Positions 2,094 to 42,474 of a stretch of 45,820 bases of DNA are shown piece by piece. This stretch comes from Candidatus Omnitrophota bacterium (GTDB taxonomy: Bacteria; Omnitrophota; Gorgyraeia; 2-02-FULL-51-18): contig JACQQY010000019.1 in NCBI GenBank assembly GCA_016206825.1, positions 1-45,820 of the forward strand. The letters run 5' to 3'. Position 1 is the stretch's first letter. Each line of letters starts with the position of its first letter. The notes below the pieces were generated by a model. That model worked only from the letters and a program-made list of their open reading frames with translations, made no database searches and was not told where the DNA came from. The translations under genes were made by a program, and so were the position numbers.

Positions 2094-2588
2094 ATGCCGG
2101 TTCCAGGGATGGAGGGTCTTCGTGAGGCGATTCAAAAGGAAGTGGAGAGCTTGGACGCCAGGCTTGTGGATTTGACTTTGAGAAAGGGGAGGGGAAGGAA
2201 CGTTTTGACGGTTCTGGCGGATAAAGAGGGCGGCATTACCTTAGGCGATTGCGCGGCGATCAATAACCATTTGAGCGGTTTTTTGGACCGGATGGCAAGG
2301 GCAGAGGCGGGTGCGGAGGCGCTTGGGTTTGGGATTTTCGATGCGCCCTGCGACTTGGAGGTCAACAGCCCCGGGCTTGACCGGCCGCTTGAGACGCCGG
2401 AGGATTTTTTGCGGGTTGCGGGGAAGCTTGTCCGCGTAGTGATGAAACCGGAGGCGGGGGCCGGCGTTTATCGCGGGAAACTCCTTTCGGTGAAGGAAGG
2501 AATGGTTGAATTGAAAGGCAAGGAAGCCGCACCCGTTTATTTACCGATTCGTTCTATTTTAAAAGGCATTCAAGAAATATCATTCTAA
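2094..2588 (+). CDS. rimP: Ribosome maturation factor RimP
   Basis: The RimP-like sequence sits directly upstream of nusA-infB. The ORF-track start at 2049 falls inside the terminator hairpin. ATG 2094 is preceded by GAGGGA (2081-2086), so I use it as the start. Confidence 0.75.
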   Translation: MPVPGMEGLREAIQKEVESLDARLVDLTLRKGRGRNVLTVLADKEGGITLGDCAAINNHLSGFLDRMARAEAGAEALGFGIFDAPCDLEVNSPGLDRPLETPEDFLRVAGKLVRVVMKPEAGAGVYRGKLLSVKEGMVELKGKEAAPVYLPIRSILKGIQEISF

Positions 2589-2604
2589 GAATTAGAGGAC
2601 GGTC

Positions 2605-3837
2605 ATGAGCACGGAACTTTCGGCCATTTTGGACAGCATTCAACGGGAAAAGGGGATCAGCCGCGAGGTGTTGATCGAATCGATCGAGGCGGCCCTTGTT
2701 TCAGCCGCGAAGAAAGTGCTTCACGATAAGGACAAAGAGGTCCAGGTGAAGATGGATCTGGAATCGGGCAGGATCCGTATTTTCTCGGAGGACAAGGAGA
2801 TCGTGTCGAGCGAATTCGGGCGCATCGCCGCTCAGACCGCGAAGCAGGTGATTTTTCAAAAAATCCGGGAAGCGGAGCGGGACGTGATCTTTCAGGAGTT
2901 CTCCGGAAAGATCCACTCTATCGTGAATGGAACGGTTTATCGCTTTGAAAAAGGAGCCCTGTTGGTGGATCTGGGGAAGACCGAGGCCATTCTTCCCCGG
3001 AAGGAGCTGTCGCCGCGGGATAATTACCGGCAGGGGGATACGATCCGGGCGTACGTCCTGGACGTCAATCGCACCGGCAGGGGATCCCAGATCCTTCTTT
3101 CGAGGAGCCATCCGGGTTTTGTGAAACGTCTTTTTGAGCTTGAGGTTCCCGAGGTGGCCGAGGGCACGGTGCAGATGAAATCGGTCTCCCGTGAGGCGGG
3201 CGATCGGACGAAGATAGCCGTTTGGTCGGAGAATGAGAAGATCGACTGCGTGGGCGCCTGCGTGGGCGTGAGGGGATCGAGGGTGAAGGGCGTGGTGAGG
3301 GAGCTCCAGGGGGAAAAGATCGATATCATCCGGTGGAGCGAAAATATTGAGGAGTTCATCCAGGCGGCTTTGAGCCCGGCGACGGTTTCTTCCGTGAAGG
3401 TTTTAAGCCGTGAAGATAAAAAGGTGGAAGTGGTCGTGAGCGACGACCAGTTGTCGCTGGCGATCGGGAAGAACGGACAGAACGTGCGTTTGGCGTCGAA
3501 GCTGACGGGCTGGTCCATCGACATTCGTTCCAAGAAGGAGATCGTGAAAGAAAAATTGGAAGAGATGGCGGCTGAGGCCGGGGCCGAAGAGCCTTCCGCC
3601 GGGATCGAATCGATCGAAGGAGTAGGACCTAAGACGGTCCTTGCTCTGGCCGAGGCAGGGTACCGGTCGCTTGAGGATTTGAAGAAGGCCAAGGAAGAGG
3701 ACTTATTGGCGGTTAAGGGCATCGGCAAAAAGACGCTTGAGAAAATCCTGGCGGCCTTGGGAAAAAGCGCCCAAGCGAGTGACGCAAGCGAAGGGAAAAA
3801 AGAGGAAGCGGCGCCCGAAGAGGGAGAAGCTTCATAA
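2605..3837 (+). CDS. nusA: Transcription termination/antitermination factor NusA
   Basis: 410 aa with an N-terminal domain, S1 and KH regions and a C-terminal helix-hairpin-helix (VKGIGKKTLEKI). Conserved rimP-nusA-infB order. Confidence 0.9.
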   Translation: MSTELSAILDSIQREKGISREVLIESIEAALVSAAKKVLHDKDKEVQVKMDLESGRIRIFSEDKEIVSSEFGRIAAQTAKQVIFQKIREAERDVIFQEFSGKIHSIVNGTVYRFEKGALLVDLGKTEAILPRKELSPRDNYRQGDTIRAYVLDVNRTGRGSQILLSRSHPGFVKRLFELEVPEVAEGTVQMKSVSREAGDRTKIAVWSENEKIDCVGACVGVRGSRVKGVVRELQGEKIDIIRWSENIEEFIQAALSPATVSSVKVLSREDKKVEVVVSDDQLSLAIGKNGQNVRLASKLTGWSIDIRSKKEIVKEKLEEMAAEAGAEEPSAGIESIEGVGPKTVLALAEAGYRSLEDLKKAKEEDLLAVKGIGKKTLEKILAALGKSAQASDASEGKKEEAAPEEGEAS

Positions 3838-6144: not shown

Positions 6145-7155
6145 GTGACCGTGTCCGTTCAGCGAAAAGAAATAGTCTTGTCCGGAATGCGGCCGACCGG
6201 CCCGCTTCATTTGGGCCATTGGCTGGGGGCTCTGCGTAATTGGGTCCAATTGCAGGACGCCTATGAATGTTACTTCATGGTGGCGGATCTCCACGCCCTC
6301 ATGGGAGAATATGAAAATCCCGCCCAGATCGAGAAAAGCTCGATGGAGATGGTGATGGACTGGCTTGCCTGCGGCATCGATCCTGAGAAGTCGGTTCTTT
6401 TCGTTCAATCCCAGATTCCGGAGCATGCGGAGCTCGCCATGATCCTGGGGATGATCACCCCCTTGGGGTGGCTCGAGAGAAATCCCACTTACAAAGAGCA
6501 GTTAAGAGAGATCGCCGGACGGGACCTTACGACCTACGGTTTTTTGGGGTATCCCGTTTTGCAGGCCGCGGATATCCTTTTATATAAAGCGAACAAGGTC
6601 CCCGTGGGGGAGGATCAGTTGGCTCATCTGGAGCTTGCCCGCGAAATCCTCCGCCGGTTCGAGCATTTTTATAAAAAGAGCCTTTTCCCCGAACCGGAGG
6701 CCCTCCTGACGGAAGAGCCGCGCCTTTTGGGAATCGACAGACGCAAGATGTCGAAGAGTTACGGCAACGCGATTAATCTGTCGGATTCGGAAGACGCCGT
6801 TCGAAAGAAGGTGCTCTCGATGATCACGGATCCCGAGCGCATCAAGATGTCGGATCCCGGTCACCCGGAGGTTTGCAACGTTTTCTCTTATTACCAGATT
6901 TTCGCCGATGCTCCGCTTACGGAAAAGGCCCATGCCTGGTGCGCCGGCGCAAAACTCGGGTGCGTCGACTGTAAAAAGACGTTTGCGGAGGTTTTGATCG
7001 AGGCGCTTCGTCCCCTCATGAAGCGGCGGCGGGAGATTGCCGCGAGGCCTGAAACCGTGAGGCAGATTTTGCAGGAAGGGCATGGCCGCGCCAAGGCCAG
7101 GGCGGAACAAACGATGCGCGAGGTAAAGGAATTTTTGCATCTGGTTCGGATTTGA
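6145..7155 (+). CDS. trpS: Tryptophanyl-tRNA synthetase
   Basis: 336 aa. Class I motifs TGPLHLGH (HIGH-type) and KMSKS (RRKMSKSYGN). Confidence 0.9.
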   Translation: MTVSVQRKEIVLSGMRPTGPLHLGHWLGALRNWVQLQDAYECYFMVADLHALMGEYENPAQIEKSSMEMVMDWLACGIDPEKSVLFVQSQIPEHAELAMILGMITPLGWLERNPTYKEQLREIAGRDLTTYGFLGYPVLQAADILLYKANKVPVGEDQLAHLELAREILRRFEHFYKKSLFPEPEALLTEEPRLLGIDRRKMSKSYGNAINLSDSEDAVRKKVLSMITDPERIKMSDPGHPEVCNVFSYYQIFADAPLTEKAHAWCAGAKLGCVDCKKTFAEVLIEALRPLMKRRREIAARPETVRQILQEGHGRAKARAEQTMREVKEFLHLVRI

Positions 7156-7166
7156 TAAGAGGCCTT

Positions 7167-7898
7167 ATGACGGATTACAAAGTCCGCTTGGACGTCTTTG
7201 AGGGGCCGCTCGATCTCCTGCTTTATTTGATCAAAAAAGACGAGCTGAACATCTATGACATCCCGATGACGCGCATTACGGGACAGTATTTGGAGTATTT
7301 GGAGCTCATGCAAGCGTTGGATCTCGAGGGTGCGGGGGAATTTTTGGTGATCGCGGCCGTCTTGACGCACCTGAAATCCAAGATGCTTTTGCCGCCGGAT
7401 CCGGAGGCTCTCCCGGAAGAGCCGGATCCGAGGGCGGAGCTCGTGAAGAGGCTTTTGGAGTATAAGGCTTTCAAGGAAGCGGCGGGGACCCTGCGGGTTT
7501 TTGAGGAAAAGCGAAGCGGGCTTTTTACGCGCTGGGGGGTAGAGCCTGAAACCGATCCGGGCGATCTTTCGTTTCTGGAAGTTTCTCTTTTTGATCTGCT
7601 TTCCAGCTTTCTCAAGGCGCTCAAGAATCTTCCGAAGGAAACCGTTCATCAAGTTTCGGCCGAGGAGTTTACCGTCGCCGACAAGATCGGGTTTATCCGG
7701 AAGCTTTTATCCAGGAAAGAGAGCGTGCGATTCGGCATTCTTTTCGCGTCGGTGAGGAGCAAGCCGGAAGCGGTGGTGGTTTTCCTCGCCCTTTTGGAGC
7801 TTGTGCGTTTAAGGGAAGTGACGGCGCGCCAGGAGGAGCCTTTCGGAGAAATTGAGATCGGTCGGAGCGTAAGGATTGCGGAGAGCCGGCATGAATGA
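7167..7898 (+). CDS. scpA: Segregation and condensation protein A
   Basis: FEGPLDLLLYLIKKDEL kleisin motif. ATG 7167 is preceded by AAGAGG. The ORF-track TTG at 7152 is also possible. Confidence 0.8.
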   Translation: MTDYKVRLDVFEGPLDLLLYLIKKDELNIYDIPMTRITGQYLEYLELMQALDLEGAGEFLVIAAVLTHLKSKMLLPPDPEALPEEPDPRAELVKRLLEYKAFKEAAGTLRVFEEKRSGLFTRWGVEPETDPGDLSFLEVSLFDLLSSFLKALKNLPKETVHQVSAEEFTVADKIGFIRKLLSRKESVRFGILFASVRSKPEAVVVFLALLELVRLREVTARQEEPFGEIEIGRSVRIAESRHE

Positions 7899-8442
7899 GC
7901 TGCGATACGCGGTCGAGGCGCTTCTTTTCGCGAGTGAACGGCCTCTTTCGGTCAAAGAGATGGGGGAGGCTTTTGGGGAGGAGGCGGATGAGAAGGCGCT
8001 GGAGGCTGGTTTACATGAGCTGAAAAACGAATACGAATCCCAAGGGAGGGGTTTTAAGCTCGTGGAGATCGCCGGCGGGTTTCAGTTGGTATCCGATCCG
8101 CGGTTCGCTTCGACCCTCAAGCGGTTTTACCAAGCCCGTGAGAAAAAGAGGCTCACCCAGGCGAGCTTGGAGACGCTGTCCATCGTCGCTTACAAACAGC
8201 CGGTGAGCCGCGCCGATGTCGAATTTATCCGCGGCGTTCAGGTGGACGGCGCTTTGAAGACGCTCTTGGAACGGAACTTGATTCGCATCGCCGGGCGGAA
8301 GGACGTCCCCGGGCGGCCGCTCCTTTATGGCACCACGCGGGAGTTTTTGGAGTATTTCGGGTTGAAAGGCCTTGAGGAACTGCCTCCACTCAAGGAGTTT
8401 ACGGAGGCGCCGCTCGAACAGGCAAAACAGGAGGAATCATGA
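7891..8442 (+). CDS. scpB: Segregation and condensation protein B
   Basis: ScpB-like winged-helix sequence (VEALLFASERPLS ... IVAYKQPVSRADVEFIRGV). ATG 7891 overlaps the scpA stop. An alternative TTG lies at 7876. Confidence 0.8.
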   Translation: MNELRYAVEALLFASERPLSVKEMGEAFGEEADEKALEAGLHELKNEYESQGRGFKLVEIAGGFQLVSDPRFASTLKRFYQAREKKRLTQASLETLSIVAYKQPVSRADVEFIRGVQVDGALKTLLERNLIRIAGRKDVPGRPLLYGTTREFLEYFGLKGLEELPPLKEFTEAPLEQAKQEES

Positions 8443-16747: not shown

Positions 16748-19700
16748 ATGGACATGTTAAGAAATAAGAAAAATAAGAAAACCATGAAAGCCGGAAGGGC
16801 TATTTTTTCTCTCACTTCCTCATATCTTTTAAAAATTATCGCTGTTTTTCTTGTTGGTTCCCTCACTTTCGAGCAGTTCGCCTTCGCCTTTCCGGAAAAG
16901 AGGGTGGTGGGTAGTGGGTCGTGGGTGGTGGATGGGAAAAAAGAAGAAAAACTTGCAGGTTTTCGTCTGCCCGAATCGATCGCTTCCGTAGAAGATTCTT
17001 ATTTTCCTTCACCCACCACCCACAACCCACCACCCACGAGCCTGGTTTACCTCCTCCAAGACCCCCATACCAATTTCTCCGGGCAAATAAACTTAGCCAA
17101 AACCATTGATTGGGTTGTGGGTAGTGGGTCGTGGATTGTGGATAAAGAAAAAGCCCCAAAAGGTTTCACCCGCCACCCTTTCTACGTCTTCTTAGAAGCA
17201 GGCCAAGGCAACCACACCCTATCTTTCCTAAAAAAATACGCCTCCAAAGAAAAAACAAAAGAAATCGCTGAAAACTTCTTAAGGCAAGGTAAACTCCATG
17301 GAAGTGAATACCTCAATCTTACCTCAGACTACGACGTCACTCTCTGGGGAGTGGAGAATCTCCCGCTTTATTTTAAAGCTCTGGAAAGCTACAAGAAGAC
17401 AGCCTCCCAGAGAAACAAATTCCAAAGCTACCTAACCCAAATAGAATCCGCAATCAACGCTCTAAAACCAAGAATCTACAACCCTTCCGCCTATACCCTT
17501 GATAAGCAAAAAGACAAGTACGAAAAAGGAGAGTTGTCTCTGGCGGAATACTTTGAAGTTCTTTCCAATAGCTCAGAACACACCAAAACCTTCCCTCACC
17601 TTAAACTTCTAAACAAACTAAAGAAACTGGAAGACTCCATCGATTTCAACAAAGCCCGGGAAGAAGAACAAAAAGCCATCCACTCCCTTTCCATCCAAGA
17701 CCAAAAAGAATTAAAAGACCTCGCCCAATCCACCATGAAGCCTCTACAACGGCTTAACTCCAAAGAAGACCAAGCCTTCTTCTTTCTCGTGGAGGAAAAA
17801 CTAAATTCCAGACTTCCAGCGTACCCCCATCTTTCAAGTTACTTCCATTACCTAAAACTCTCAAAGAAACTCAAAGCCAACAACCTCTTAAAAGAACTAA
17901 AAGCCCTTGAAGCCCAGGCCTTTGATTCCTTGCTCATTAGCCAGGATGAAAAGACCCTCTTTCGTTCTTCCAAGACGCTGTCACTTCTCAAGAAGCTCTT
18001 TAACTTTCAACTGACTCCGGAAGAATGGCAAGAGTACCAGAAGCTTAAAGAAGAATGGATTCAAATCCCCCCCGCCCCCTTTCAAATAAAAAGGGGGTTG
18101 CTCTTTAGCTCTTTTTCTTTAAGTAAAAGAAAGCCCTTACCCCCTTTTCCTTTCAAAGGGGGCAGGGGGGATTTTATCACCGCCCTCACAGGCTTCCTCA
18201 ACAAGAAAATCATGGATTTTAAGGATTATTACAGGGAAACCGTGTTTCTTGAACCCGGCTTCGAAAAAATCGAGAAAGAAGCGGAAGCCTTCTATGACCT
18301 CACCTTCCAAAGAGACCAGGCTTTCATTCAAAACATGCTCCACAAACTCTCTCAAAGCTCTCAAATCCCCCCTGCCCCCTTTGAAGGGAAAAGGGGGTTG
18401 GTCGGGTTGGTTGAACCCCAGCGAACCTCACCCCCTTTTCTTCTTAAAGGGGGCAGGGGGGATTTAAACCCCTCCACCCACCACCCTGTTTTCCTCATGA
18501 CCGGAGGTTTTCATACTCCCAATCTCAAGAAACTCTTAAAAGAAAAAGGAATCTCCTACGTCGTCATCACTCCCCAAGTCTTCCACGAAACCAACCAAAA
18601 GCGCTACGAGAAGCTTCTCTTAAGCCGGGACCTTTCTTCGAAGCCCTTCACCCACGCCATTCCCCTTGGCCTGACACGTCCTTCTTACATCGGCGTTGAT
18701 CTTTTGCTGTACAAAGGAGATCTAGCCCATGGTTTTGCCAATACCGGGGAAGAGCTAAACTCAAAAGAAGAAGAAAGAGCGATCCTCGAAGAAATGAAAC
18801 GCCGCCTTGGAGGAAGAGACCCCCAAGTGGCCGAGCAAGGTTCTGTTCGTCCCACGGGGACGGGAGCGAGGCTGGCTTTGGAAGATCAAAAAATTCAAGT
18901 TTCAAGCTCTGGCCCTAAGGATGCAAGAATTGACCCAAAAGCTGGCAGGTTGACTCTTGCCAAAACTTTTATCAATTTTCTAAAGGCTTACTTTATTGTT
19001 GGGCTGGTTATTTTTTTCTGCTCCTGTAATTTGGGGCATCAAGATAAGAATGTTCAAAAGAACGCCTTGTCTCTCGCCGGAGAAACAAACATTCCCAAAG
19101 ACTTAGAATCTCTAAAACCCTTCTTGGAGCATCAAAATGACGATGTTCGGTCTGACGCCTGGCTTTTCGCCGGAGGAACAAACCTTTTCAAAAACTTGGA
19201 ATCTCTGAAACCATTGTTAGAGCATAAGGATGCGAATATTCGATCAGAAGCCTGGTTTCTTGCCAGAGAAAAAAACTTTTTCAAAGACTTGGAATCTCTA
19301 AAACCCTTCTTGGAGCATCAAAATGTCGGTGTTCAGGTTAGAGCCTGGTCTCTCGCCAAAGAAACAAACCTTTTCAAAGACTTAGAATCTCTAAAACCCT
19401 TGTTGGAGCATCAAGATAGCTATGTTCAGTCCACAGCCTGGTCTCTCGCCCGAGAAACAAACCTTTTCAAAGACTCGGAATCTCTAAAACCCTTCTTGGA
19501 ACATCAAAATGGCTATGTTCAGTTTAGAGCCTGCTCTTTCGCTCGAGAAACAAACCTTTTTAAAGACTTAGAATCTCTAAAACCCTTGTTGGAGTATCAA
19601 AATAGCTATGTTCAGTCCACAGCCTGGTCTCTCGCCAAAGAAACAAACCTTTTTAAAGATTTGGAATCTCTAAAGCCCTTCTTGAAACATCAAAATAACG

Positions 19701-22700
19701 ATGTTCGGTGTAAAGCCTGGTCTCTCGTCCGAGAAACAAACCTTTTCAAAGATTTGGAATCTCTAAAGCCCTTTTTATACGATAAAGGCAGGATAGTTTA
19801 TAAAGATGCGGTTTACTGTTTATCTGAATGTAAACTCTTTGAGAAAGAAAAAGACCTGAGCCCTTATTTAAAAGATACAAACCACCTAGAAATTGCTTGT
19901 GAGGCCTTAAAAGTTCTTATTGAAAGAAAAGAGTTTTCTTTGGACCCTTACGAAAACCTCCTCCGAGCCATTTCTATTGCCGAATACGATGCTGGGCATG
20001 GTTCCTTTGTCAATAAACCTAACAGTGAACTTTTTACGGAATTATACTCCCAATTTATTTCCAGGTTAAACAATCACTATGCTCAAAATAAGCTTACCCC
20101 TCTCCAAGAACTCGAAGATATCGGACTGCCCGTCCTTCACACACTTTCTTACTACAAGGAATACCTTAAAACCCTCCAAGAAGAAGACCGGCTTCTTTTT
20201 ACCAGAAAAGTTGCCGATCTCATCGTGGAGCAAAGAACGGCTCATCAAGATAAAATAATGATTGGAAGCGGTATGAAAGTCATTGTAGCGGCCCATGGAG
20301 AGCTTGGAGAAGGAGACTTGAGATTTGCGGATGCGAAGTTTATGAAGTTTCTTAAACAAATCACCGGTTTGGAAACTATCCCCGTTTTTAGAGGCTCCGA
20401 GGAAGACGTTAAGACCACCCAAGAAAAAAACAAATACCTCAAAGAACTGGAAGAGCTTTCAAGACAAAAAAAAGAATGTGTAATCATTGATCTTGGCCAT
20501 GGAGGCAAAGAGCATTTTTGGTTTTCCGGTGGACAGATAGAGAGTGAAGAGTCGGCCTCTCCTTATCATCCATTGGCCGTGAGTTTTAGGGAATATGCCG
20601 AAGCCTTTGTGAAGGGGCAGTCCCAAGAAAAAGAAATAGATCTTTCACACATCGCTATCATTCAGTCCGCTTGTTATCAGTATGATCTTGTTGAGAGGAT
20701 GTTCCAAGAGATTCTAAAGGTCACCAAGGAAGAGAAAAAATCCGTCAAATCACTTCCATTTGTTATGACACTAGCCAATAAAAACAGATTTGGTTTGTCA
20801 AATAAGCCAGGTACTTATACCTCAGAGCCTATTTTCAATGCCATTTATTCTCTTCGATTAAGGCATGGAATTCCTGTTCGTTTAAAGCACCTCTATCAAA
20901 TAGATCAAATGATTCGAGGAGAGGGTGGGCAAAACCCGGCTATTTTTATACCGATCGACCCACTCAAAGTCCAAGAGAAATTAGGGCTTCCCAAGGAAGT
21001 GGAAATAAAGCCGTTTCTTGAAATCGGCGCAAGATTAGCCCAACCCGGATCCCGCCCCGAGGAACTCACAGAAGTTTCTGCACAAACCCAAACCGGACGG
21101 GGTCCCGAAAAGGCGAAAGGGGACACGTTAGCCAAGGGGTCAAGTCTAGACAATAGACAAAGCGGTGTTAAGGTGCCGGAGTTGGGGGGCATGCGGTCAG
21201 GAGGAGATTTGACCCCTTCCGCAGGGACCGGCCTCTTCTCTAGTGAGAGTGCCGGTGGCGGTAGTATTGCTCTACCTTCATCGCCACGTAAAAGCCGACG
21301 AAGGTTAGAAGAATCACCGCTGAAAAGAATATTAGCGACTTTTCATCCACTTTTCTTTTCCTCCTCTGGTTGGAGTATGAATCCTGATAAAATCAAGCCG
21401 GCAAATATGACACCCAATATTATCACCCATACGGTAACACATCCATTGAGTGAAATCAAACCAAGCATGTGGACTGGCAATAAGGAGAAGGTTTCTACCG
21501 GCGCGAGGCTGGCGGGGCGGGTGCCGGGGTATTTTAAGAATCCGGACTTTCCTGAGTTCCGGGATTGGCTGCTTTCTTCGGATTCGCCGCTGACTGAGAG
21601 AGAGAAGGAGTTTTTGAAGATCCGTTATTGGTGGGGGGACGCCGGGACGGTTCAATCGTTAAAAGAGGTGATCTCAAAAAAAGAAATTCGTTCCAGACTT
21701 GGCTTGGGAAGGTGGGGAATAGCAAGGCTTTCCGCTCATTTGCGGCGGAAGATAAAAGAGCTTTACCGCCTGCGCCATGCACAAAAAGGATTTTATCCTT
21801 CAAACGAAGGGGAAACGGCCGCCGGCGTCAACTTTTTGCAGAGCTCTGGTTCAAGACCGGCAAAGGTGAACCACTCCAAGAATGCCGGGGCGAGGCTGGG
21901 GGAGAAAGAAAGTCAGGTTTCAGGGGCTGACCCCTTGATCGAACCCTCTTTATTAAAAGCGTGGTGGTTTGGGCGGGCTCATCGGTATGCGGCGGCGATG
22001 GGGGTTCCCGAGAAGAAAGCGTGGGAGGTGATCGACCGCGTTTTGGAGAGGTCGTCGTGGTTTGCCTGGAAGCGCGTTTGGCGAAAGGTGTGGATGGAAG
22101 AGGCCCTGAAAGAAAGCGAAGACATTATCTTGAAAGCGAACATGATTTACACCGCAAAAAGCTTTGTTTCAAGAGAAACTTCTTTTACCAATGAGGAAAA
22201 GGAAATATTCAAAGAAGCTCATGAACGGTATTTTCGTCTGAAAAACGGCGGGAAAGCCCGGATAGAACATGACGTCGAAATCCCTTCGAAAAATTTTGAT
22301 TATCCAATCCCGGCGGACTTCCTTCTTCCTCCTAACGCTTCAGGCTCGCATCCGGTTCCGGCGGTCATTCTCGTGCATGGGATGACTCACACGCGGTTTG
22401 AACCGGATCTTAATCCCTTGGTGAGGCGATTGCTGGAGAAAGGGATCGCCGTTTTGCGCGTCGAGCTTCCTTCCCATGGGGACAACCAAAATCGATTCAA
22501 AAAACCAGATGATCTCGATTGGATGGTGAAAGACTCGCTCGATTATCTTAAGAAAGATCCAAGAATCAAATCAGCGGCGATAGGCATCGCGGGTTTTAGT
22601 TTTGGAGCTTACGTGGTATTGAGATCGATTTTGGATGAGAAGATCGCTCCTTATTTGCGCGGTTTTGCGGCCATAGCGCCTCCCGCGATCCGCACGCTTA

Positions 22701-25700
22701 CTTCGTTTGTCCATCTGGTCGTCATTTTGCGCCCGATGAAATCGCAATTGATGAGAGTTTTTGGGGAGCGCTTTTCTTGGCCGCTGCACTCTAAGATTTC
22801 GAAGCTGGCGTTAAATGAAAATAGACTGCTGGAGCTGACCCAGGATACGCCGAGTTTGGAAAAGATCGCCGTGGTGTCGATGGGAAGCGACAGAGTGATT
22901 CACGATGCTGACATTAAAATTCTCTTTGAGGTTTTTGGAAAAGGACCGTCCCAGTATCGATTTTTTAAAAAGGCCTCCCATAACCTTATTGGCCAAGACA
23001 GGCAAGAAGCCGACGCGTTCATTGCCGACCATTTTGAGAAAGCCTTGGGATCAAATGGCGCGAGGTTGGGGGTGAAAGAAAGTGTCAAAAGTCAACGACT
23101 GACCCCAGAACCAAAAGAGGAAAAAAAGAAAGAAGCCGGTGCCCGGCTGGCAATTAATCAGCTTCTTATGTCAGCGGCTAAGGAAGATGTCTATGACAAA
23201 GCGGAAAGAGCGTTTCAGCTTTATCAACAAACGCCCCAGGGCAAACCATCGTTAACATCTGATGACAGAATTAGTTTGGAAACTCTGACCATTCTTCTGC
23301 TTAAAGCTTCACACGCCCAAGCAGGAGAACAGTCTATGTGGGCGCGGTTCTTTTGCCAAATAGATTCTGTTCGAAGAGCATGGCAAGAGCAGCACTTTCC
23401 AGGTGTTATCGAATGGCTGCAAAATTTCTCGGGGGATTCGGTTGTGGCTCAGGCACTCACAAGGTTTGGAACACAGACAAGGCTATCCGATCAGTCTCTT
23501 CCTGCCAAGGTGTCAGAAATTGTATTAGCCGATACATCCGGAGAAGGCAAAGATCTCATCGCCATCCCTACGGTCCAAGACGCATCAAAAACGAAAGAGT
23601 TTATCATGATTTTGAAACCACCTACATCATTTAATCCGGAAACCATTATTGAAATTGTGAAAAGGCTCATTTATTTCGGATACCACGTCGTAGGAATCAG
23701 AGTTTATTCGGGAGAACATTTTGCCGCGCATCCTGAAATCATTGGAAGCCAATACATGGAAGCTTGGGAAGGCTGTCAAAATGGAATTCAAAAAGCGGAA
23801 GAATGGGCCGAGATCAGAAGAATCTACGACACGGATGAGTTTGAAGCGACATTCGGTGAGCGTTACAGTGATCAAATGGTAATTCCAGCCGCTGAATTAG
23901 GAAAACGCTATGGATTTTCCAACGAAGAAATTACGGCTCTATGGGAAAGAGGAAGACGAGAAGCTTTATTTCATAATGGCCGCGCCACAGGCTTAAATAA
24001 GGTAGGCTCAGGGCGAAGCGTTTTTCCGGTCAAAGATCCACGAATCAACAGTGGCAGACCCATCATCATGGTTAATGGCTATGTGCCCAGTTTATTGAAA
24101 CTTTTCCAGGGGCCTGATGCCAGGACAGTGGTTTTTCTGATAAGGAATAGGGAGGATGTTCAGTTCCCTATGTCATGGGAATCTCTTCGCAAACAATTGC
24201 TTGGAAATGAAAATGATCCAAGCGCCAACCCTGCCGGCAGTATACGAAGAGATGCATGGACGGGAAATTTGCCGGTCAGACTTCAAGGCGTCTTGAACGG
24301 ACAAAAAAATGTGGCCCACCTCAGTTCGGGTCCGCTCGAAGGCTTGCGAGAAGCTCACATCATGATGGGGCGTGCCATTCAAGATGCGCCCTTTGGTCAA
24401 CAACTTCTTGCGGCAGGTTATCCAGAATCCCAAATCAAGTATCTCATGGGAAACCCAAAAGTGAGGTATTTGAATAAAGCAACCGGAATGTATGCTGTGG
24501 AATCACTTTTTCGATTGACGGAGTATCGAGAACCCAAAGAAGCTCTAGCAATCATCCTCGAATATTTTCCGCCGTATCGCGAATCAAATCCAGATTTAGC
24601 TTCAAGCGTTCCGTTTGACGAGTTTCTGGAAATACAACAAGCCTACCAGGAAGGAAGTTTGTCCGTGCGAACTAACCGCGTACAGGCGAATGTCGTCCAG
24701 ACATCCAGCGTCGAGCCAATCTACTTTCCTGGAATACCCGAAGATGAGATGAGGCGTCTCAATGAGACAGGCGTTGCCGGATTTCAGGCAGGAGAAGCGG
24801 CGCTTATTGTTCCCGGAGGCGGCACAGGAGGGCGTTATGGTGGTTACCATCTTCCGGAAAGTCATCCTGACCGCCAGAAGGTGTTGGCAAAAGCGCTTGA
24901 GGCAGCAAATGGCCTGCGAAGTCCCTTAGAAGTCAGAGCGGCGCACGTCCTGTGGTGGTCTCGTCATCATCAAGCAAAAATTCCGATTTTAATCATGGGA
25001 AATGAATCGAACCTTCCAGCCATAAATGACGCGCTGGAAGAAAATGACTATTACGGCCTTAATCCGAAACAAGTCGACGCCTATCAGCAAAACGGTATTT
25101 ACAGAATCAATCCTATGGCTAATGATTTATCCGGCCAGTCTGATGCCGCGCTGATTTTAGCCTCAAATGGAGAACCTGGTGGAATCTTTCGGGACGATGA
25201 GGGTCATGTCAGCGCTAAGCCTGCGGGTCACGTAGAAATTATTGCTCAGGCCGTCTTAAACCGCCGTCTCCTGAAACTGGCTCGACAAGGCGTCAAAGTG
25301 CTTGTAACCGCAAATGGGGATGATATGAGATTCCTCTTGGATCCTGCAAAGATTGCCTATTTCATGGAAAGTCCTGAGCAAATGATGGCTGTCCTAGCCT
25401 TAAAAGATGTGACTTATGCCATTCAAGTCTCAGGTCAAAAACATCGTTTGATTGTGCGAGGCCAAAAAGTCGTGCAATCAAGCTTGCCGAAGGAATTTCA
25501 TATCGAGATAGATGGAAACCAAGCACTGAAAATCACTCAAGACGGCAATCTCGTGGATATAGCCATTGAAAGTAAAAAAGTGGAAAAAGGCGGATCCCTG
25601 GTGGACTTGAAAGGTACTGATGAAATCCGGAGGCCTGTGATTCTCGAGGGGCCGGCGTTTCCAGACGAGGCAGACCAAGGTCAATTTCCGTACTTCAACA

Positions 25701-27217
25701 CCAATCAGTTGTATTTCAAAGTTGATGCGCTTCTTCAGTTTTTTGGTATCAGCAATTTAGATGAGTACGAAAGGATGCCACAAAAAGAACTGGCTCATCG
25801 AGTCAGGACGGCTTTATCCCAATTACCTCTTTATGTCGAAATAAAAGATGTCATTACTTCCGGAGAAGATACAAAGGAGCCTCAAACACGCAAAGCAGCC
25901 CAAGTTGTCAGGCTTATAGGAGATTTCAGCCGTGTTTTCAAGACTCGTTACATTACAATTGATCGAGATGGCGAAGAAGGCGTAGGAGGATATGGAGCGC
26001 TCAAAGAAAAACAAGATACCACCGCCGCTTCGCATTGGCTCGAGGAAACCAACAACAAACAGAGAATATTTTTATTCGACCCAACTCCGGGAAAAAGTGA
26101 ATTTAATCCTACGCCGGTTGTTGCTCTTACAATAACTACAACTACAAGCGCTTCCAGTTCGCCTTACCCTCACAAAGATGACGTCAAGGAAGGACTTGAG
26201 CCCTTTGCGAACAATCAATCCAAAAATCCTGTCGTTTTAAACCAAGGCTCCCCCATCGAACAAAAAGACGAGCTCATCTTCGCTTTGAACGTCTACGACA
26301 ATACACGCAAAGAAGGTTACTTCGCGCTTGCCCGAAAACCGGAAGGGACGCCCGATATTCTTGGAATTGAGTTTAATAAAGAAAAGAATACCGTCATCGT
26401 TCATTTTAGCGGCCAAAAGAAAGTCGAAGTTAAAAATTACAGAGCCATTCTTCAGAGAAAAAGGACAGCCCGGCATTATGAGAAGGGAAGTCTTGTTTTA
26501 TCGAGAAAAGAGCTGATTCTCTCGGATATCGCTTTTGAGCTTAAAGAAGAGACGCTCGCCGTCGAAGAAAAGGCCAAGGGTCTCATCACCAACTCCCCTA
26601 AACTCTTGAAACTCAAGCTTCCCGGATTTATGAATGAAAACACCAAGACCACCGATGCCCTCTTTGTCGACTGGCTTATTCACGCCGCCCATAAGGCCAA
26701 GAGAGACAACGCGCTTCTTCTTTTGGAAGAAGGAAGCAGTTTCCGGATGGCGGAGATTCTGAAGAGGGCCTCCAAACTCTATCCGACAGAAAGATTTGTC
26801 TATTCCAGTGAACAAGAATTGCCCGAATCCCACAAAAATGCCAAGAGCGTCACGCTAACAGCCTTCAATCCTGAAGAGGCCCCCCACTTAGAAGAAAACC
26901 AGCTTTACCTCATCTCCCAAACCCTTGAAAAGGGCGCCATGCATAACCTGACGGCTCTTATTCAGACAGCTCTCGTTGAAGCGGAGGTGGGCCTTGAGGG
27001 AATGAGGGCAGACAACCCTCAATTTGACGGATTCAGAAATGTTTATGAAGCCCTGGGCGTGAAGATAGGGGATGACATCAACGGCTTTATCCAATTCACC
27101 AAAGGCATCGGCTTAAACCCACAGAAGATGGAACAGTGGGCCATCCCTTTTCACCGTGTCGATGAAATGCTGAGAGCTTATGCTCTGGGCGCCCGCATGG
27201 CTGAGCAGTCGGCGTAA
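16748..27217 (+). CDS. Giant multidomain protein (3,489 aa), hypothetical; signal-peptide-bearing modular protein, possibly a polyprotein
   Basis: Single stop-free frame of 10,470 nt. N-terminal basic plus hydrophobic segment ending AFA|FP. Recognisable modules are listed as separate 'other' features. Seven G-A-R-[LM]-[AG] junction motifs. No obvious SD; the ATG lies 11 nt after the tyrS stop. Confidence 0.8.
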   Translation: MDMLRNKKNKKTMKAGRAIFSLTSSYLLKIIAVFLVGSLTFEQFAFAFPEKRVVGSGSWVVDGKKEEKLAGFRLPESIASVEDSYFPSPTTHNPPPTSLVYLLQDPHTNFSGQINLAKTIDWVVGSGSWIVDKEKAPKGFTRHPFYVFLEAGQGNHTLSFLKKYASKEKTKEIAENFLRQGKLHGSEYLNLTSDYDVTLWGVENLPLYFKALESYKKTASQRNKFQSYLTQIESAINALKPRIYNPSAYTLDKQKDKYEKGELSLAEYFEVLSNSSEHTKTFPHLKLLNKLKKLEDSIDFNKAREEEQKAIHSLSIQDQKELKDLAQSTMKPLQRLNSKEDQAFFFLVEEKLNSRLPAYPHLSSYFHYLKLSKKLKANNLLKELKALEAQAFDSLLISQDEKTLFRSSKTLSLLKKLFNFQLTPEEWQEYQKLKEEWIQIPPAPFQIKRGLLFSSFSLSKRKPLPPFPFKGGRGDFITALTGFLNKKIMDFKDYYRETVFLEPGFEKIEKEAEAFYDLTFQRDQAFIQNMLHKLSQSSQIPPAPFEGKRGLVGLVEPQRTSPPFLLKGGRGDLNPSTHHPVFLMTGGFHTPNLKKLLKEKGISYVVITPQVFHETNQKRYEKLLLSRDLSSKPFTHAIPLGLTRPSYIGVDLLLYKGDLAHGFANTGEELNSKEEERAILEEMKRRLGGRDPQVAEQGSVRPTGTGARLALEDQKIQVSSSGPKDARIDPKAGRLTLAKTFINFLKAYFIVGLVIFFCSCNLGHQDKNVQKNALSLAGETNIPKDLESLKPFLEHQNDDVRSDAWLFAGGTNLFKNLESLKPLLEHKDANIRSEAWFLAREKNFFKDLESLKPFLEHQNVGVQVRAWSLAKETNLFKDLESLKPLLEHQDSYVQSTAWSLARETNLFKDSESLKPFLEHQNGYVQFRACSFARETNLFKDLESLKPLLEYQNSYVQSTAWSLAKETNLFKDLESLKPFLKHQNNDVRCKAWSLVRETNLFKDLESLKPFLYDKGRIVYKDAVYCLSECKLFEKEKDLSPYLKDTNHLEIACEALKVLIERKEFSLDPYENLLRAISIAEYDAGHGSFVNKPNSELFTELYSQFISRLNNHYAQNKLTPLQELEDIGLPVLHTLSYYKEYLKTLQEEDRLLFTRKVADLIVEQRTAHQDKIMIGSGMKVIVAAHGELGEGDLRFADAKFMKFLKQITGLETIPVFRGSEEDVKTTQEKNKYLKELEELSRQKKECVIIDLGHGGKEHFWFSGGQIESEESASPYHPLAVSFREYAEAFVKGQSQEKEIDLSHIAIIQSACYQYDLVERMFQEILKVTKEEKKSVKSLPFVMTLANKNRFGLSNKPGTYTSEPIFNAIYSLRLRHGIPVRLKHLYQIDQMIRGEGGQNPAIFIPIDPLKVQEKLGLPKEVEIKPFLEIGARLAQPGSRPEELTEVSAQTQTGRGPEKAKGDTLAKGSSLDNRQSGVKVPELGGMRSGGDLTPSAGTGLFSSESAGGGSIALPSSPRKSRRRLEESPLKRILATFHPLFFSSSGWSMNPDKIKPANMTPNIITHTVTHPLSEIKPSMWTGNKEKVSTGARLAGRVPGYFKNPDFPEFRDWLLSSDSPLTEREKEFLKIRYWWGDAGTVQSLKEVISKKEIRSRLGLGRWGIARLSAHLRRKIKELYRLRHAQKGFYPSNEGETAAGVNFLQSSGSRPAKVNHSKNAGARLGEKESQVSGADPLIEPSLLKAWWFGRAHRYAAAMGVPEKKAWEVIDRVLERSSWFAWKRVWRKVWMEEALKESEDIILKANMIYTAKSFVSRETSFTNEEKEIFKEAHERYFRLKNGGKARIEHDVEIPSKNFDYPIPADFLLPPNASGSHPVPAVILVHGMTHTRFEPDLNPLVRRLLEKGIAVLRVELPSHGDNQNRFKKPDDLDWMVKDSLDYLKKDPRIKSAAIGIAGFSFGAYVVLRSILDEKIAPYLRGFAAIAPPAIRTLTSFVHLVVILRPMKSQLMRVFGERFSWPLHSKISKLALNENRLLELTQDTPSLEKIAVVSMGSDRVIHDADIKILFEVFGKGPSQYRFFKKASHNLIGQDRQEADAFIADHFEKALGSNGARLGVKESVKSQRLTPEPKEEKKKEAGARLAINQLLMSAAKEDVYDKAERAFQLYQQTPQGKPSLTSDDRISLETLTILLLKASHAQAGEQSMWARFFCQIDSVRRAWQEQHFPGVIEWLQNFSGDSVVAQALTRFGTQTRLSDQSLPAKVSEIVLADTSGEGKDLIAIPTVQDASKTKEFIMILKPPTSFNPETIIEIVKRLIYFGYHVVGIRVYSGEHFAAHPEIIGSQYMEAWEGCQNGIQKAEEWAEIRRIYDTDEFEATFGERYSDQMVIPAAELGKRYGFSNEEITALWERGRREALFHNGRATGLNKVGSGRSVFPVKDPRINSGRPIIMVNGYVPSLLKLFQGPDARTVVFLIRNREDVQFPMSWESLRKQLLGNENDPSANPAGSIRRDAWTGNLPVRLQGVLNGQKNVAHLSSGPLEGLREAHIMMGRAIQDAPFGQQLLAAGYPESQIKYLMGNPKVRYLNKATGMYAVESLFRLTEYREPKEALAIILEYFPPYRESNPDLASSVPFDEFLEIQQAYQEGSLSVRTNRVQANVVQTSSVEPIYFPGIPEDEMRRLNETGVAGFQAGEAALIVPGGGTGGRYGGYHLPESHPDRQKVLAKALEAANGLRSPLEVRAAHVLWWSRHHQAKIPILIMGNESNLPAINDALEENDYYGLNPKQVDAYQQNGIYRINPMANDLSGQSDAALILASNGEPGGIFRDDEGHVSAKPAGHVEIIAQAVLNRRLLKLARQGVKVLVTANGDDMRFLLDPAKIAYFMESPEQMMAVLALKDVTYAIQVSGQKHRLIVRGQKVVQSSLPKEFHIEIDGNQALKITQDGNLVDIAIESKKVEKGGSLVDLKGTDEIRRPVILEGPAFPDEADQGQFPYFNTNQLYFKVDALLQFFGISNLDEYERMPQKELAHRVRTALSQLPLYVEIKDVITSGEDTKEPQTRKAAQVVRLIGDFSRVFKTRYITIDRDGEEGVGGYGALKEKQDTTAASHWLEETNNKQRIFLFDPTPGKSEFNPTPVVALTITTTTSASSSPYPHKDDVKEGLEPFANNQSKNPVVLNQGSPIEQKDELIFALNVYDNTRKEGYFALARKPEGTPDILGIEFNKEKNTVIVHFSGQKKVEVKNYRAILQRKRTARHYEKGSLVLSRKELILSDIAFELKEETLAVEEKAKGLITNSPKLLKLKLPGFMNENTKTTDALFVDWLIHAAHKAKRDNALLLLEEGSSFRMAEILKRASKLYPTERFVYSSEQELPESHKNAKSVTLTAFNPEEAPHLEENQLYLISQTLEKGAMHNLTALIQTALVEAEVGLEGMRADNPQFDGFRNVYEALGVKIGDDINGFIQFTKGIGLNPQKMEQWAIPFHRVDEMLRAYALGARMAEQSA
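16902..17143. repeat. G-tract / C-tract inverted repeat set inside the 5' end of the giant ORF
   Basis: GGGTGGTGGGTAGTGGGTCGTGGGTGGTGGATGGG (16902-16935). Its approximate reverse complement is CACCCACCACCCACAACCCACCACCCACGA (about 17010-17039). A second G-rich copy lies at 17112-17143. They are translated as VVGSGSWVVD / PTTHNPPPT / VVGSGSWIVD. Confidence 0.75.
18063..18174. repeat. Family-A palindromic element inserted in-frame in the giant ORF (copy 1)
   Basis: AAATCCCCCCCGCCCCCTTT ... AAAGGGGGCAGGGGGGATTT. Read through as IPPAPFQIKRGLLFSSFSLSKRKPLPPFPFKGGRGDF. Confidence 0.85.
18363..18465. repeat. Family-A palindromic element inserted in-frame in the giant ORF (copy 2)
   Basis: AAATCCCCCCTGCCCCCTTT ... 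AAAGGGGGCAGGGGGGATTT. Read through in the same frame as IPPAPFEGKRGLVGLVEPQRTSPPFLLKGGRGDL. Confidence 0.85.
19088..19831 (+). repeat. Eight tandem 93-nt (31-aa) HEAT-like coding repeats
   Basis: Units start at 19088, 19181, 19274, 19367, 19460, 19553, 19646 and 19739. Consensus NLFKDLESLKPFLEHQNxxVxxxAWSLAxET. A partial unit lies before 19088 and degenerate units after 19831. Confidence 0.85.
20260..20720 (+). other. Caspase-fold (clan CD)-like cysteine peptidase module of the giant protein
   Basis: Hydrophobic strand plus His-Gly (CVIIDLGHGG, His1251 at 20498-20500), and hydrophobic strand plus Cys (IAIIQSACYQ, Cys1309 at 20672-20674), 58 aa apart. An earlier strand reads KVIVAAHGE. Motif-level evidence only. 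Confidence 0.45.
21515..21886 (+). other. Sigma-70 region-4/LuxR-like helix-turn-helix module of the giant protein
   Basis: LTEREKEFLKIRYWWG...SLKEV...LGLGRWGIARLSAHLRRKIKELY resembles the L.eRer.vl.lry...s..eIa..lg.s...v......a..kLr pattern. Bounded by GARLA (21500) and GARLG (21887). Confidence 0.35.
22260..23056 (+). other. Alpha/beta-hydrolase module of the giant protein
   Basis: VILVHG strand; nucleophile elbow G-F-S-F-G (Ser1951, 22598-22600); GSDRVI (Asp2048, 22889-22891); ASHNL (His2078, 22979-22981). The order is the canonical Ser-Asp-His. Confidence 0.6.
23594..24400 (+). other. Nucleoside-diphosphate-kinase-like module with a large insertion
   Basis: KEFIMILKP (compare ERTFIMIKPD), LLGNENDPSANPAGSIRRDAW (compare GaTnP..A.pGTIRgDf) and KNVAHLSSGPLEGLREAHIM (compare N.iHGSDS.e.A.rEi; His2524 at 24317-24319). 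The first and last blocks are about 240 aa apart, versus about 105 in canonical NDK. Confidence 0.5.
24690..26050 (+). other. UDP-sugar pyrophosphorylase (UDPGP family)-like nucleotidyltransferase module
   Basis: LIVPGGGTGGRYGG (compare LNGGLGTsMG), AKPAGHVEI, VTANGDD and PYFNTNQLYF (compare FNTNN). Confidence 0.55.
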
Positions 27218-27228
27218 AAAGGGTTGTA

Positions 27229-27250
27229 GGGGCAGGTTCCAAACCTGCCC
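27229..27250. repeat. REP-like GC hairpin immediately after the giant-ORF stop
   Basis: GGGCAGGTT (27230-27238) / AACCTGCCC (27242-27250), 3-nt loop, no T-tract. Same GGGGCAG-type stem as the hairpins at 35584-35638. Confidence 0.7.
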
Positions 27251-27315
27251 AGAGACTGTCAAACCTGATTTGATGGACTCCCGTTTCCGAAGAAGACTTA
27301 CGGAGGAAACCGCCA

Positions 27316-27644: not shown

Positions 27645-27730
27645 AAATCCCCCCTGCCCCCTTTTAAATAAAAAGGGGGTTGGTCAAACCCCGCTTCCTT
27701 CAGTAGTAGTTGCTCTTTAGTTCTTTCTCT
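27645..27730. repeat. Family-A palindromic element, truncated (left-half) copy
   Basis: AAATCCCCCCTGCCCCCTTTTAAATAAAAAGGGGGTTGG... plus the internal GTTGCTCTTTAG block. The right terminal repeat is absent. Confidence 0.7.
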
Positions 27731-41988: not shown

Positions 41989-42474
41989 ATGGCCGTCGTC
42001 TTTCTTGGGATAGGATCGAATCTGGGAGATCGGGAGGCGAACGTCCGGCGGGCCGTCGACCTTCTTAAGGAAAACGAGGCCATTCGCGTTTTGTCGGTTT
42101 CGGGCTTGGTCGAGACGGAACCGGAAGGAGGTCCCCCTCAAGGGAAATACCTGAACGCCGCCGCCAAGATCGAAACCGACCTTCTGCCGCTTGAGCTTTT
42201 GTCCCAGCTTAAGATGATCGAAAGACGCCTTGGCCGGGTCAAAGGGGAGCCCAATGCCCCGCGACCGATGGATCTTGATATTTTGTTTTATGACGACGTG
42301 GTTATCTTCGAAGGAAGAAACCTTTGCTTGCCCCATCCGCGATTGGAAAAGCGGTTTTTTGTCTTGAAGCCCCTTCTTGAAATAGCCCCCGATTGGATTC
42401 ACCCGAGGCTTCGCAAATCGGTGAAGGTTCTCCACGATGAGTTGACCCATGAGAGTTGTCCAGAATCCCGCTAA
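41989..42474 (+). CDS. folK: 2-amino-4-hydroxy-6-hydroxymethyldihydropteridine pyrophosphokinase
   Basis: LGIGSNLGDR and PRPMDLDIL motifs. Confidence 0.85.
   Translation: MAVVFLGIGSNLGDREANVRRAVDLLKENEAIRVLSVSGLVETEPEGGPPQGKYLNAAAKIETDLLPLELLSQLKMIERRLGRVKGEPNAPRPMDLDILFYDDVVIFEGRNLCLPHPRLEKRFFVLKPLLEIAPDWIHPRLRKSVKVLHDELTHESCPESR

Follow-up and report, generated by a model that had tools for sequence, protein, structure and literature searches.

A recurrent GAR[LM][AG] pentapeptide at the module boundaries of a giant Omnitrophota protein: candidate processing sites of a possible bacterial polyprotein

Whether the giant proteins of Omnitrophota stay in one piece or are processed into numerous products is an open issue in the literature (West-Roberts et al.). 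The same question is raised by a giant open reading frame (ORF) in a 45,820-nucleotide stretch from a Candidatus Omnitrophota bacterium (assembly GCA_016206825.1, contig JACQQY010000019.1, positions 1 to 45,820 of the forward strand; hereafter the window), whose predicted product carries the pentapeptide GAR[LM][AG] seven times. A first-pass annotation, made from the sequence alone, had proposed that these repeats were either cleavage sites for a peptidase embedded in the same protein or recombination junctions between its modules. We analysed the motif in the window protein and in its relatives. The motif is non-random, conserved in distant homologues, positioned at module boundaries and selected as a peptide, and a second motif class occurs in other members of the family.

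A non-random pentapeptide at module boundaries

Translation placed the seven pentapeptides exactly where the first-pass annotation had located them (Table 1). The block lengths that it had derived (705, 716, 153, 124, 385, 22 and 1345 residues) were likewise correct, with a tail of four residues to be added. Every GAR tripeptide of the giant protein continues with [LM][AG], and GARL is the sole tetrapeptide with at least four copies outside the HEAT array. The seven observed occurrences compare with about 0.015 expected, which bears out the claim that the motif lies far above chance. Of 2000 composition-preserving shuffles, 1974 lacked the motif and 26 contained it once, with none reaching two, and no tetrapeptide attained six copies in the same set. 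A six-frame scan of the window yielded no GAR[LM][AG] beyond the seven in the giant protein. The 33 other window genes (10,959 residues) encode seven GAR tripeptides, in which the next residue is P, V, N, R, E, L or K; GAR is ordinary in this genome and the extended motif is not. The earlier statement that no other window protein contains GARL was slightly wrong, as the pantoate–β-alanine ligase (42449–43300) has a lone GARLV, which is consistent with chance.

Homologues were collected by an exhaustive HMMER search with residues 2136–3335 as the query, which returned 416 sequences, many of them 2–4.8 kaa (thousand amino acids) in length; the motif statistics rest on 150 of these 416. Individual homologues are designated below by P numbers. 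Source names exist for three, all Candidatus Omnitrophota, and the named proteins are annotated by a single domain, as UTP–glucose-1-phosphate uridylyltransferase, phosphoglycerate kinase (PGK) or 6-phosphogluconolactonase (6PGL). The NDK-like/UDPGP-like block also occurs in stand-alone proteins of 800–1000 residues. Four parts are common to the family, namely a signal/anchor segment, an N-terminal domain, the NDK-like/UDPGP-like block and a C-terminal helix ending in R-x-[SA]-A, and a C-terminal domain of ~330 residues is common to a subset of relatives. Residues 27–650 of the window protein align to the N-termini of 14 giants. Residues 706–2135 have no counterpart in any relative; the middle region of the relatives is occupied instead by PGK, PfkB, 6PGL-like, DUF218 or HEAT modules. 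Word-index homologue searches with residues 1239–2151 and 1052–1426 gave no match, and a search with the C-domain alignment retrieved a fragment of the window protein itself and nothing more. Looking up the exact protein sequence likewise gave no entry.

The motif was found in five relatives: P0075 (eight copies, GAR[LM][AS]), P0033 (seven, GARL[AVTI]), P0002 (five, GAR[LM]A), P0019 (three, GAR[LM][AS]) and the fragment P0045 (two, GARLG and GARMS). In all five, each GAR belongs to the motif. The density of GAR[LM] is 23 per 10 kaa in these motif-class relatives vs 0.27 in 141 other homologues (148,088 residues), and among the 141 listed there is no GAR[LM][AG]. The pentapeptide is confined to the giant ORFs within five loci, and is not common in ordinary proteins. 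The check proposed in the first-pass annotation was whether the motif is kept at linkers in homologues while the modules vary, and this was observed in a subset of them.

The motif is retained among proteins that are elsewhere just 20–40% identical, with G-A-R invariant. The window protein and P0033, for instance, share 39% identity in the N-domain and ~31% in the enzyme block, with seven GARL each. The codons at 30 sites comprise four for Gly, four for Ala, six for Arg and six for Leu, with a lean towards GGC-GCG-MGG-YTG-GCG; as all synonyms are used, selection acts on the peptide. The flanks of 32 motif instances have nothing in common. Sites are found in the valleys that separate homology blocks or on the edges of such blocks, with the exception of one P0045 site that falls within a conserved block and may be due to chance. 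Internal sites are embedded in polar, linker-like sequence (mean percentile 70, z = 4.2, n = 38). In six proteins the first site directly follows the N-domain (residues 706, 685, 616, 556, 648 and 669), and the residues that precede site 1 in the window protein have a low predicted local distance difference test (pLDDT) score in the AlphaFold model. The Pfam domains of the relatives fall between sites: in P0033, the sites at 752 and 1105 bracket the 6PGL-like domain (869–1070), and those at 1398 and 2895 bracket the NDK and UDPGP regions. The modules thus delimited differ among relatives.

A second motif class occupies equivalent boundary positions in three relatives without GAR[LM], P0109, P0040 and P0077, which carry RSE[VLIT]R in seven, four and two copies, respectively, again with varying codons. 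A second giant paralogue was observed 1.8 kb 3' of P0109 (locus L031, 20478–24288 of contig JAQTOZ010000006.1, GCA_028713205.1). It ends at the contig end and possesses the same signal peptide and N-domain, with RSEIR right after the latter. Because this paralogue carries the same RSE.R motif as P0109, motif class is a property of the genome or lineage, as would be expected of a motif read by a co-evolving factor. The second class, at equivalent positions and in two paralogues, thus speaks for a reader particular to each genome. The presence of the paralogue on the same contig means that several such giant genes are possible per genome. P0001, P0008, P0010, P0014 and P0041 have no recurrent motif, exact or in a reduced alphabet. 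A degenerate equivalent in these motif-less relatives was also sought with one-wildcard or reduced-alphabet 5-mers, and none was found. The punctuation is optional, since these other family members do without it.

The first-pass annotation's second proposal, that the motifs are recombination junctions, is taken here to mean scars left by the insertion or swapping of cassettes that would do nothing for the protein as such, and bears directly on these nucleotide data. Sites 4 and 5 do share flanks, as had been noted, in the form of a 27-nt direct repeat with 24 of 27 positions identical (89%), which brackets the α/β-hydrolase cassette and suggests that junctions were duplicated upon module insertion. 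Also in favour are the site pairs in relatives that share two or three extra downstream residues, the codon bias towards one nucleotide consensus, the lineage-specific middle cassettes and a GC content of the gene below that of its flanks. However, synonymous codons vary freely while G-A-R is invariant between otherwise divergent proteins, flanks have diverged fully, and sites 4 and 5 alone share 27 nt. Moreover, homologous recombination would need more than the ten nucleotides that are shared, and neither a recombinase, an immunity gene nor a spare cassette lies nearby. The proposal is weakened by the codon variation and by the lack of a toxin/immunity context, with junction duplication around the hydrolase as the part that stands, and we regard scars as quite unlikely to account for the motif.

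Still less can be said for a signal at the nucleotide level, such as an internal ribosome-binding site with its start codon, or a Chi-like or other DNA site, of which the peptide would be an incidental translation. The fourth codon is ATG, CTG or TTG in 23 of 30 sites, and AGG or CGG is over-represented ahead of it. However, the remaining seven sites use CTA, CTC, CTT or TTA, the Arg codon is CGN in 21 of 30 (which destroys any GAGG), the spacing to NTG would be zero, and RSE.R sites have no purine-rich stretch. An internal Shine–Dalgarno sequence with start codon was rejected on account of the predominance of CGN and the zero spacing, and a nucleotide signal of any kind is considered exceedingly improbable.

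Proposed cleavage, the candidate enzyme and alternatives

The interpretation we favour, at somewhat less than an even chance, is that an endopeptidase recognises the GAR sites, which are specific to the lineage, in a multi-enzyme polyprotein anchored by its signal segment; the cutter would be either the Tiki-like domain at the N-terminus or a protease acting in trans. GAR[LM][A/G] would serve as a short peptide-level recognition signal in the linkers between independently folding modules, and its carrier would be a giant multi-enzyme protein with a signal anchor, made by a bacterium of the Omnitrophota type. A site-specific endopeptidase would most likely cut there, which would make the ORF a bacterial polyprotein. 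The predicted products are the N-terminal Tiki/ChaN-like domain, a transmembrane (TM)/HEAT block, small linker modules, the α/β hydrolase and, last, the NDK-like/UDPGP-like enzyme block with the C-terminal domain. The recognition code would be lineage-specific, with GAR[LM]x in one set of relatives and RSE[VLIT]R in another, and because relatives use different motif classes, the recognising factor would co-evolve with its sites. The lipobox-like segment that follows site 1 resembles a signal peptide and would fit a module that requires a free N-terminus. Cleavage of the sites, the bond cut and the enzyme responsible are what we infer from these sequence patterns, and the pentapeptides represent the first concrete candidate cut sites for such bacterial giant proteins.

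Several established signals were considered and set aside. A signal peptidase I or lipoprotein site is unsuitable, owing to Arg at position −3. Encapsulin or bacterial microcompartment targeting peptides, sortase-type sorting signals and 2A-like skipping resemble the motif in length alone. A signal peptide downstream of every site was likewise rejected, as one is present after window site 1 alone.

The enzyme originally named, an embedded clan-CD-like cysteine peptidase (H1251/C1309) that would cut GARL after Arg, or GARLA after Leu as in MARTX toxins, did not gain support from any profile, fold or homologue. In clan CD the cut falls after Arg, and in the MARTX domain after Leu. The region does contain a clan-CD-like residue pattern, with a hydrophobic strand plus His-Gly (VIIDLGH1251GG) and a hydrophobic strand plus Ala-Cys (AIIQSAC1309), which is a short pattern without statistical weight. 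Profile searches were performed with the whole protein and nine sub-segments against Pfam, NCBIfam and PDB sequences at E ≤ 10, and residues 1150–1426 had no match in any of them; residues 1052–1426 matched no profile of a clan CD family (C11, C13, C14, C25, C50 or C80). The word-index search found no homologues of the putative peptidase region, and its single-sequence AlphaFold model was unusable (mean pLDDT 37.2). The block is present in no other motif-bearing relative, even at E ≤ 10, and P0033 has seven GARL sites yet zero cysteines. This peptidase is very unlikely to be the cutter.

On sequence grounds, the family-wide N-terminal domain appears to be a better candidate enzyme than the clan-CD region, although it is unproven, and would be the best candidate cutter, with a protease in trans as the alternative. 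Residues H107, E150, R522 and GG-x-H589 are invariant in 11 sequences at 18–39% identity, and D105 is nearly invariant. The domain possesses the set of acidic-x-His, Glu and second His, with Asp in place of the first Glu of a 2His/2Glu site. Such a site is found in RRSP, a sequence-specific endopeptidase of the Tiki superfamily (PMC6254334). Against PF04187 (ChaN, Tiki superfamily; gathering score 27.7 bits), one of 11 unspliced members matched (E = 1.2e-4). With the helical insert spliced out, the best homologue reached 25.9 bits (E = 1.1e-5; another, 0.083) and the window N-domain 15.2 bits (E = 0.021). The ChaN-like assignment of the first-pass annotation was thus upheld by sub-threshold matches and conserved residues, and fell short at the gathering score. 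An AlphaFold model of the N-domain computed with an alignment (mean pLDDT 68.9) placed strands next to the conserved residues, in an α/β core interrupted by a helical insert of ~330 residues. A profile search of the N-domain against PDB sequences returned no match. That a Tiki-type hydrolase at the N-terminus of Omnitrophota multi-enzyme precursors cuts them at genome-specific GAR[LM]A or RSE[VLI]R sites is put forward tentatively, as a possibility that we doubt more than we credit. If such Tiki self-cutting were true, it would provide the first cleavage-site code for the giants of the phylum, and the mature products would be predictable from sequence.

A side observation concerns this domain in the P0002 locus (L025), where a 323-residue gene (7148–8119) lies just upstream of P0002 (8179–14754). 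P0002 begins at a point matching window residue 359, and because of this the upstream gene may encode the initial half of the N-domain. The split would fall in the helical insert and not at a motif, and could be a frameshift or assembly error, or real.

Several points weigh against cleavage as set out above. Many members share the N-domain without the motif, and fused modules evidently work unpunctuated. A protein can have the N-domain and lack the motif, and the N-domain alone cannot explain where the motif occurs, because it is also found in relatives without the pentapeptide. The Tiki assignment lies beneath Pfam's gathering score, and a Foldseek search of the N-domain model against the PDB gave nothing below E = 0.1. 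The lack of a Foldseek match is due to the 330-residue helical insert, which dominates the search, and Tiki membership is left unproven. Not all linkers bear a site: the UDPGP/C-domain junction of the window protein has none, though P0002, P0075 and P0019 have one there. In addition, the codon lean and the 27-nt repeat indicate that some of the similarity between sites stems from common descent of the junctions. Finally, site 7, four residues from the C-terminus in a helix conserved across the family, fits pure cleavage least. The tail LRAYALGARMAxQ[SA][AV], directly followed by the stop, is found in the window protein, P0075 and P0019; P0041 has GNRMA, and motif-less relatives have other residues at this position of the helix. 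Site 7 may preserve the setting in which the motif arose, or serve for binding and not for cutting, and may differ in nature from the other six because a cut there would achieve little.

Site 7 is better explained if the pentapeptide in linkers and C-tail is a docking motif that binds a partner, such as a scaffold, a chaperone, a secretion or sorting component or another domain of the giant protein, which would remain intact. Peptide-level selection, linker position and lineage-specific classes are evidence that docking shares with cleavage, and several P0075 sites follow amphipathic helices resembling the C-terminal tail. Nevertheless, a partner could not be identified, and the genes around the giants are not conserved. 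A compact Arg motif of four or five residues, set exactly at the borders of enzyme modules, is seen more typically with protease sites, and the second signal-peptide-like segment past site 1 is hard to use in an uncut chain. We consider docking in an uncleaved protein unlikely.

If the sites are cleaved, the gene would exemplify a chromosomally encoded polyprotein strategy for bacterial metabolic enzymes, with a site code co-evolving with its reader; this would resemble RNA-virus polyproteins and MARTX toxins, with different modules and a different candidate protease family. If they are not, a linker motif common to paralogues within a genome would still point to an unseen partner. The motif yields predictions in the form of peptide termini for metaproteomes, residues to mutate and a domain to test as an enzyme.

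Comparison with known systems

By analogy, the arrangement would work most like MARTX, gingipain or viral polyproteins, yet it fails the defining features of each. MARTX toxins are likewise very large single bacterial polypeptides, cysteine-poor like the window protein, in which unrelated enzyme modules are separated by linkers and an internal protease cuts short intermodule sites. Among their effectors is the Tiki-superfamily endopeptidase RRSP (PMC6254334), and the window N-domain keeps a similar residue set; however, RRSP acts on host Ras and not on its own polyprotein. In contrast to MARTX, the window protein has no Peptidase_C80 in the Pfam and NCBIfam searches, no RTX repeat match, an N-terminal signal/anchor segment in place of a purely C-terminal type I signal, and modules of metabolic type (NDK-like, UDPGP-like and hydrolase, with PGK, PfkB and 6PGL-like modules in relatives). 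Its sites are a fixed pentapeptide rather than Leu-X.

The gingipain and adhesin polyproteins of Porphyromonas gingivalis (RgpA, Kgp and HagA) are located at the cell surface, and their domain boundaries are cleaved after Arg or Lys to release separate functional pieces. Both motif classes described here similarly contain Arg, but the window protein has no Peptidase_C25, no type IX secretion C-terminal domain and no haemagglutinin repeats, and belongs to another phylum. In viral polyproteins, a 3C-like or papain-like protease contained in the precursor cuts lineage-specific short peptides at each junction, with co-evolution of the two. The giant gene differs in being a chromosomal bacterial gene in a housekeeping neighbourhood without a recognised viral-type protease, and no relative of its product was found in viral contigs. 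Polymorphic toxins mark the border between conserved and variable modules with a short peptide (VENN in CdiA, DPxGL in Rhs), with one border per protein ahead of the C-terminal toxin, and an immunity gene downstream. Unlike these, the giant proteins have up to eight borders, no toxin/immunity pair and a conserved rather than variable C-terminal domain, and the genes downstream in the window are rplM and rpsI.

The giant protein belongs with the recently described multi-enzyme giants of Omnitrophota. In two reports, proteins of 10–150 kaa are described under the terms "Archaeovorins" and "multi-enzyme metabolic cluster" (bioRxiv 10.1101/2023.11.21.568195; 10.64898/2026.06.07.730766). Their authors suspect proteolytic processing and leave it unresolved, with one paper calling the cleavage points unknown (10.1101/2023.11.21.568195; 10.64898/2026.06.07.730766). 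Term searches of these two papers retrieved no description of a recurrent boundary motif or cleavage site, and a literature search on the letters of the motif matched surnames and acronyms only. The phylum is the same, judging by the homologues that bear a source name (Candidatus Omnitrophota or Omnitrophica), and several unrelated enzyme domains share one ORF, in which sugar- and nucleotide-metabolism domains together with HEAT scaffolding tile a single polypeptide. In contrast to those giants, the window protein measures 3.5 kaa and contains no C39 or S8 peptidase, dockerin or SecA domains.

Modules, gene and chromosomal setting

The features of the giant ORF are collected in Table 1. The profile searches recognised just three regions, namely the HEAT repeats, the α/β hydrolase and a weak UDPGP/UDP-GlcNAc pyrophosphorylase-like region. 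The TM segment and HEAT repeats of the first-pass annotation were supported by hydrophobicity and profile matches and its hydrolase by the α/β-hydrolase profile, while the UDPGP-like and NDK-like regions gained their support via homologues. The helix–turn–helix call for residues 1585–1713 had no profile support. The first hydrophobic segment looks like a signal peptide or signal anchor.

Table 1. Pentapeptide sites and other features of the giant ORF in the window
Feature	Position (nt)	Strand	Remark
Giant ORF, 3489 aa/codons	16748–27217	+	between tyrS and rplM
Site 1, GARLA (aa 706)	18863–18877	+	directly after N-domain, low-pLDDT polar stretch
Site 2, GARLA (aa 1427)	21026–21040	+	
Site 3, GARLA (aa 1585)	21500–21514	+	
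Site 4, GARLG-EKES (aa 1714)	21887–21913	+	left copy of 27-nt direct repeat
Site 5, GARLG-VKES (aa 2104)	23057–23083	+	right copy of 27-nt direct repeat
Site 6, GARLA (aa 2131)	23138–23152	+	immediately before NDK-like/UDPGP-like block
Site 7, GARMA (aa 3481)	27188–27202	+	inside family-wide conserved C-terminal helix
N-terminal hydrophobic segment (aa 18–48) after Lys/Arg-rich start	16799–16891	+	also in homologues
Family-wide N-terminal domain (about aa 72–630), Tiki/ChaN-superfamily-like	16961–18637	+	conserved residues
Second hydrophobic segment, lipobox-like FFCSC (aa 737–763)	18956–19036	+	30 aa past site 1
HEAT-like tandem array, period 93 nt (31 aa)	19031–19888	+	
Region earlier called clan-CD-like (aa 1150–1426; H1251 in DLGHGG, C1309 in QSAC)	20195–21025	+	
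α/β-hydrolase domain (aa about 1795–1992)	22130–22723	+	profile match
Conserved NDK-like + UDPGP-like block (aa about 2255–3095)	23510–26032	+	common to 416 homologues
C-terminal domain, ~330 aa	26225–27214	+	42–52% identity to P0075, P0019 and P0041

The NCBI version of the protein (P0152) has 3477 residues and starts at Met13. The GC content of the gene is ~0.46 vs ~0.54 in its flanks. All neighbours are housekeeping genes on the same strand: proS, rimP, nusA, infB, trpS, scpAB, pheA, aromatic amino-acid genes, cmk, plsC, rpsA and tyrS on the 5' side, and rplM, rpsI, arginine and lysine biosynthesis genes and panC on the 3' side. No protease, recombinase, immunity-like gene or spare cassette was found among the window neighbours, and there is no toxin or immunity-gene context around the giant gene. 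The nearest tyrS locus among GTDB representatives (L001; 60% identity) belongs to a metagenome-assembled genome labelled Planctomycetia; its gene order is plsC-rpsA-tyrS, followed by a 153-residue ORF at the position of rplM, with no giant gene. As this related tyrS locus is without it, the giant gene appears to be a lineage-specific insertion in a core region. A tblastn search of 23 related loci with the giant protein gave no match, a locus search with the same query found no relative in genome, metagenome or viral contigs, a scan with the C-domain alignment recovered no locus beyond one of those described here, and the gene neighbourhoods of the relatives are not conserved.

Of the 11 cysteines of the window protein, nine fall in block 2 (residues 706–1426), and residues 1–705 and 1427–2135 are depleted. 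Three giant relatives have zero cysteine: P0033 (3360 residues), P0040 (3099) and P0059 (2797). Such strong depletion suggests, from composition, that these proteins are exported unfolded or reside outside the cytoplasm.

Repeats of other kinds were also observed. A palindromic element of ~36 nt (AAATCCCCCCTGCCCCCTTT...AAAGGGGGT), resembling repetitive extragenic palindromes (REP) or miniature inverted-repeat transposable elements, is present in seven copies in the window (positions 17–36, 103–122, 18063–18174, 18363–18465 and 27645–27680). Two complete inverted pairs sit in frame in the N-domain of the giant gene, where they translate as IPPAPF..KRGL and PPF.[FL]KGGRGD[FL], and the remaining copies are intergenic. 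The N-domain insertions are located in low-pLDDT loops and occur in no homologue. Arrayed 7-nt repeats, of a G-rich (GGGTGGT) and a C-rich (CACCCAC) kind, lie at 16902–16935, 17010–17037 and 17111–17141. They form inverted repeats in the 5' part of the giant ORF, are window-specific insertions relative to homologues, and translate as VVGSGSW(V/I)VD (twice) and PTTHNPPPT. Immediately 3' of the giant-gene stop (27218–27260), there is a GC-rich hairpin (GGGGCAGGTTccaaACCTGCCC), which is terminator-like and has no T-run.

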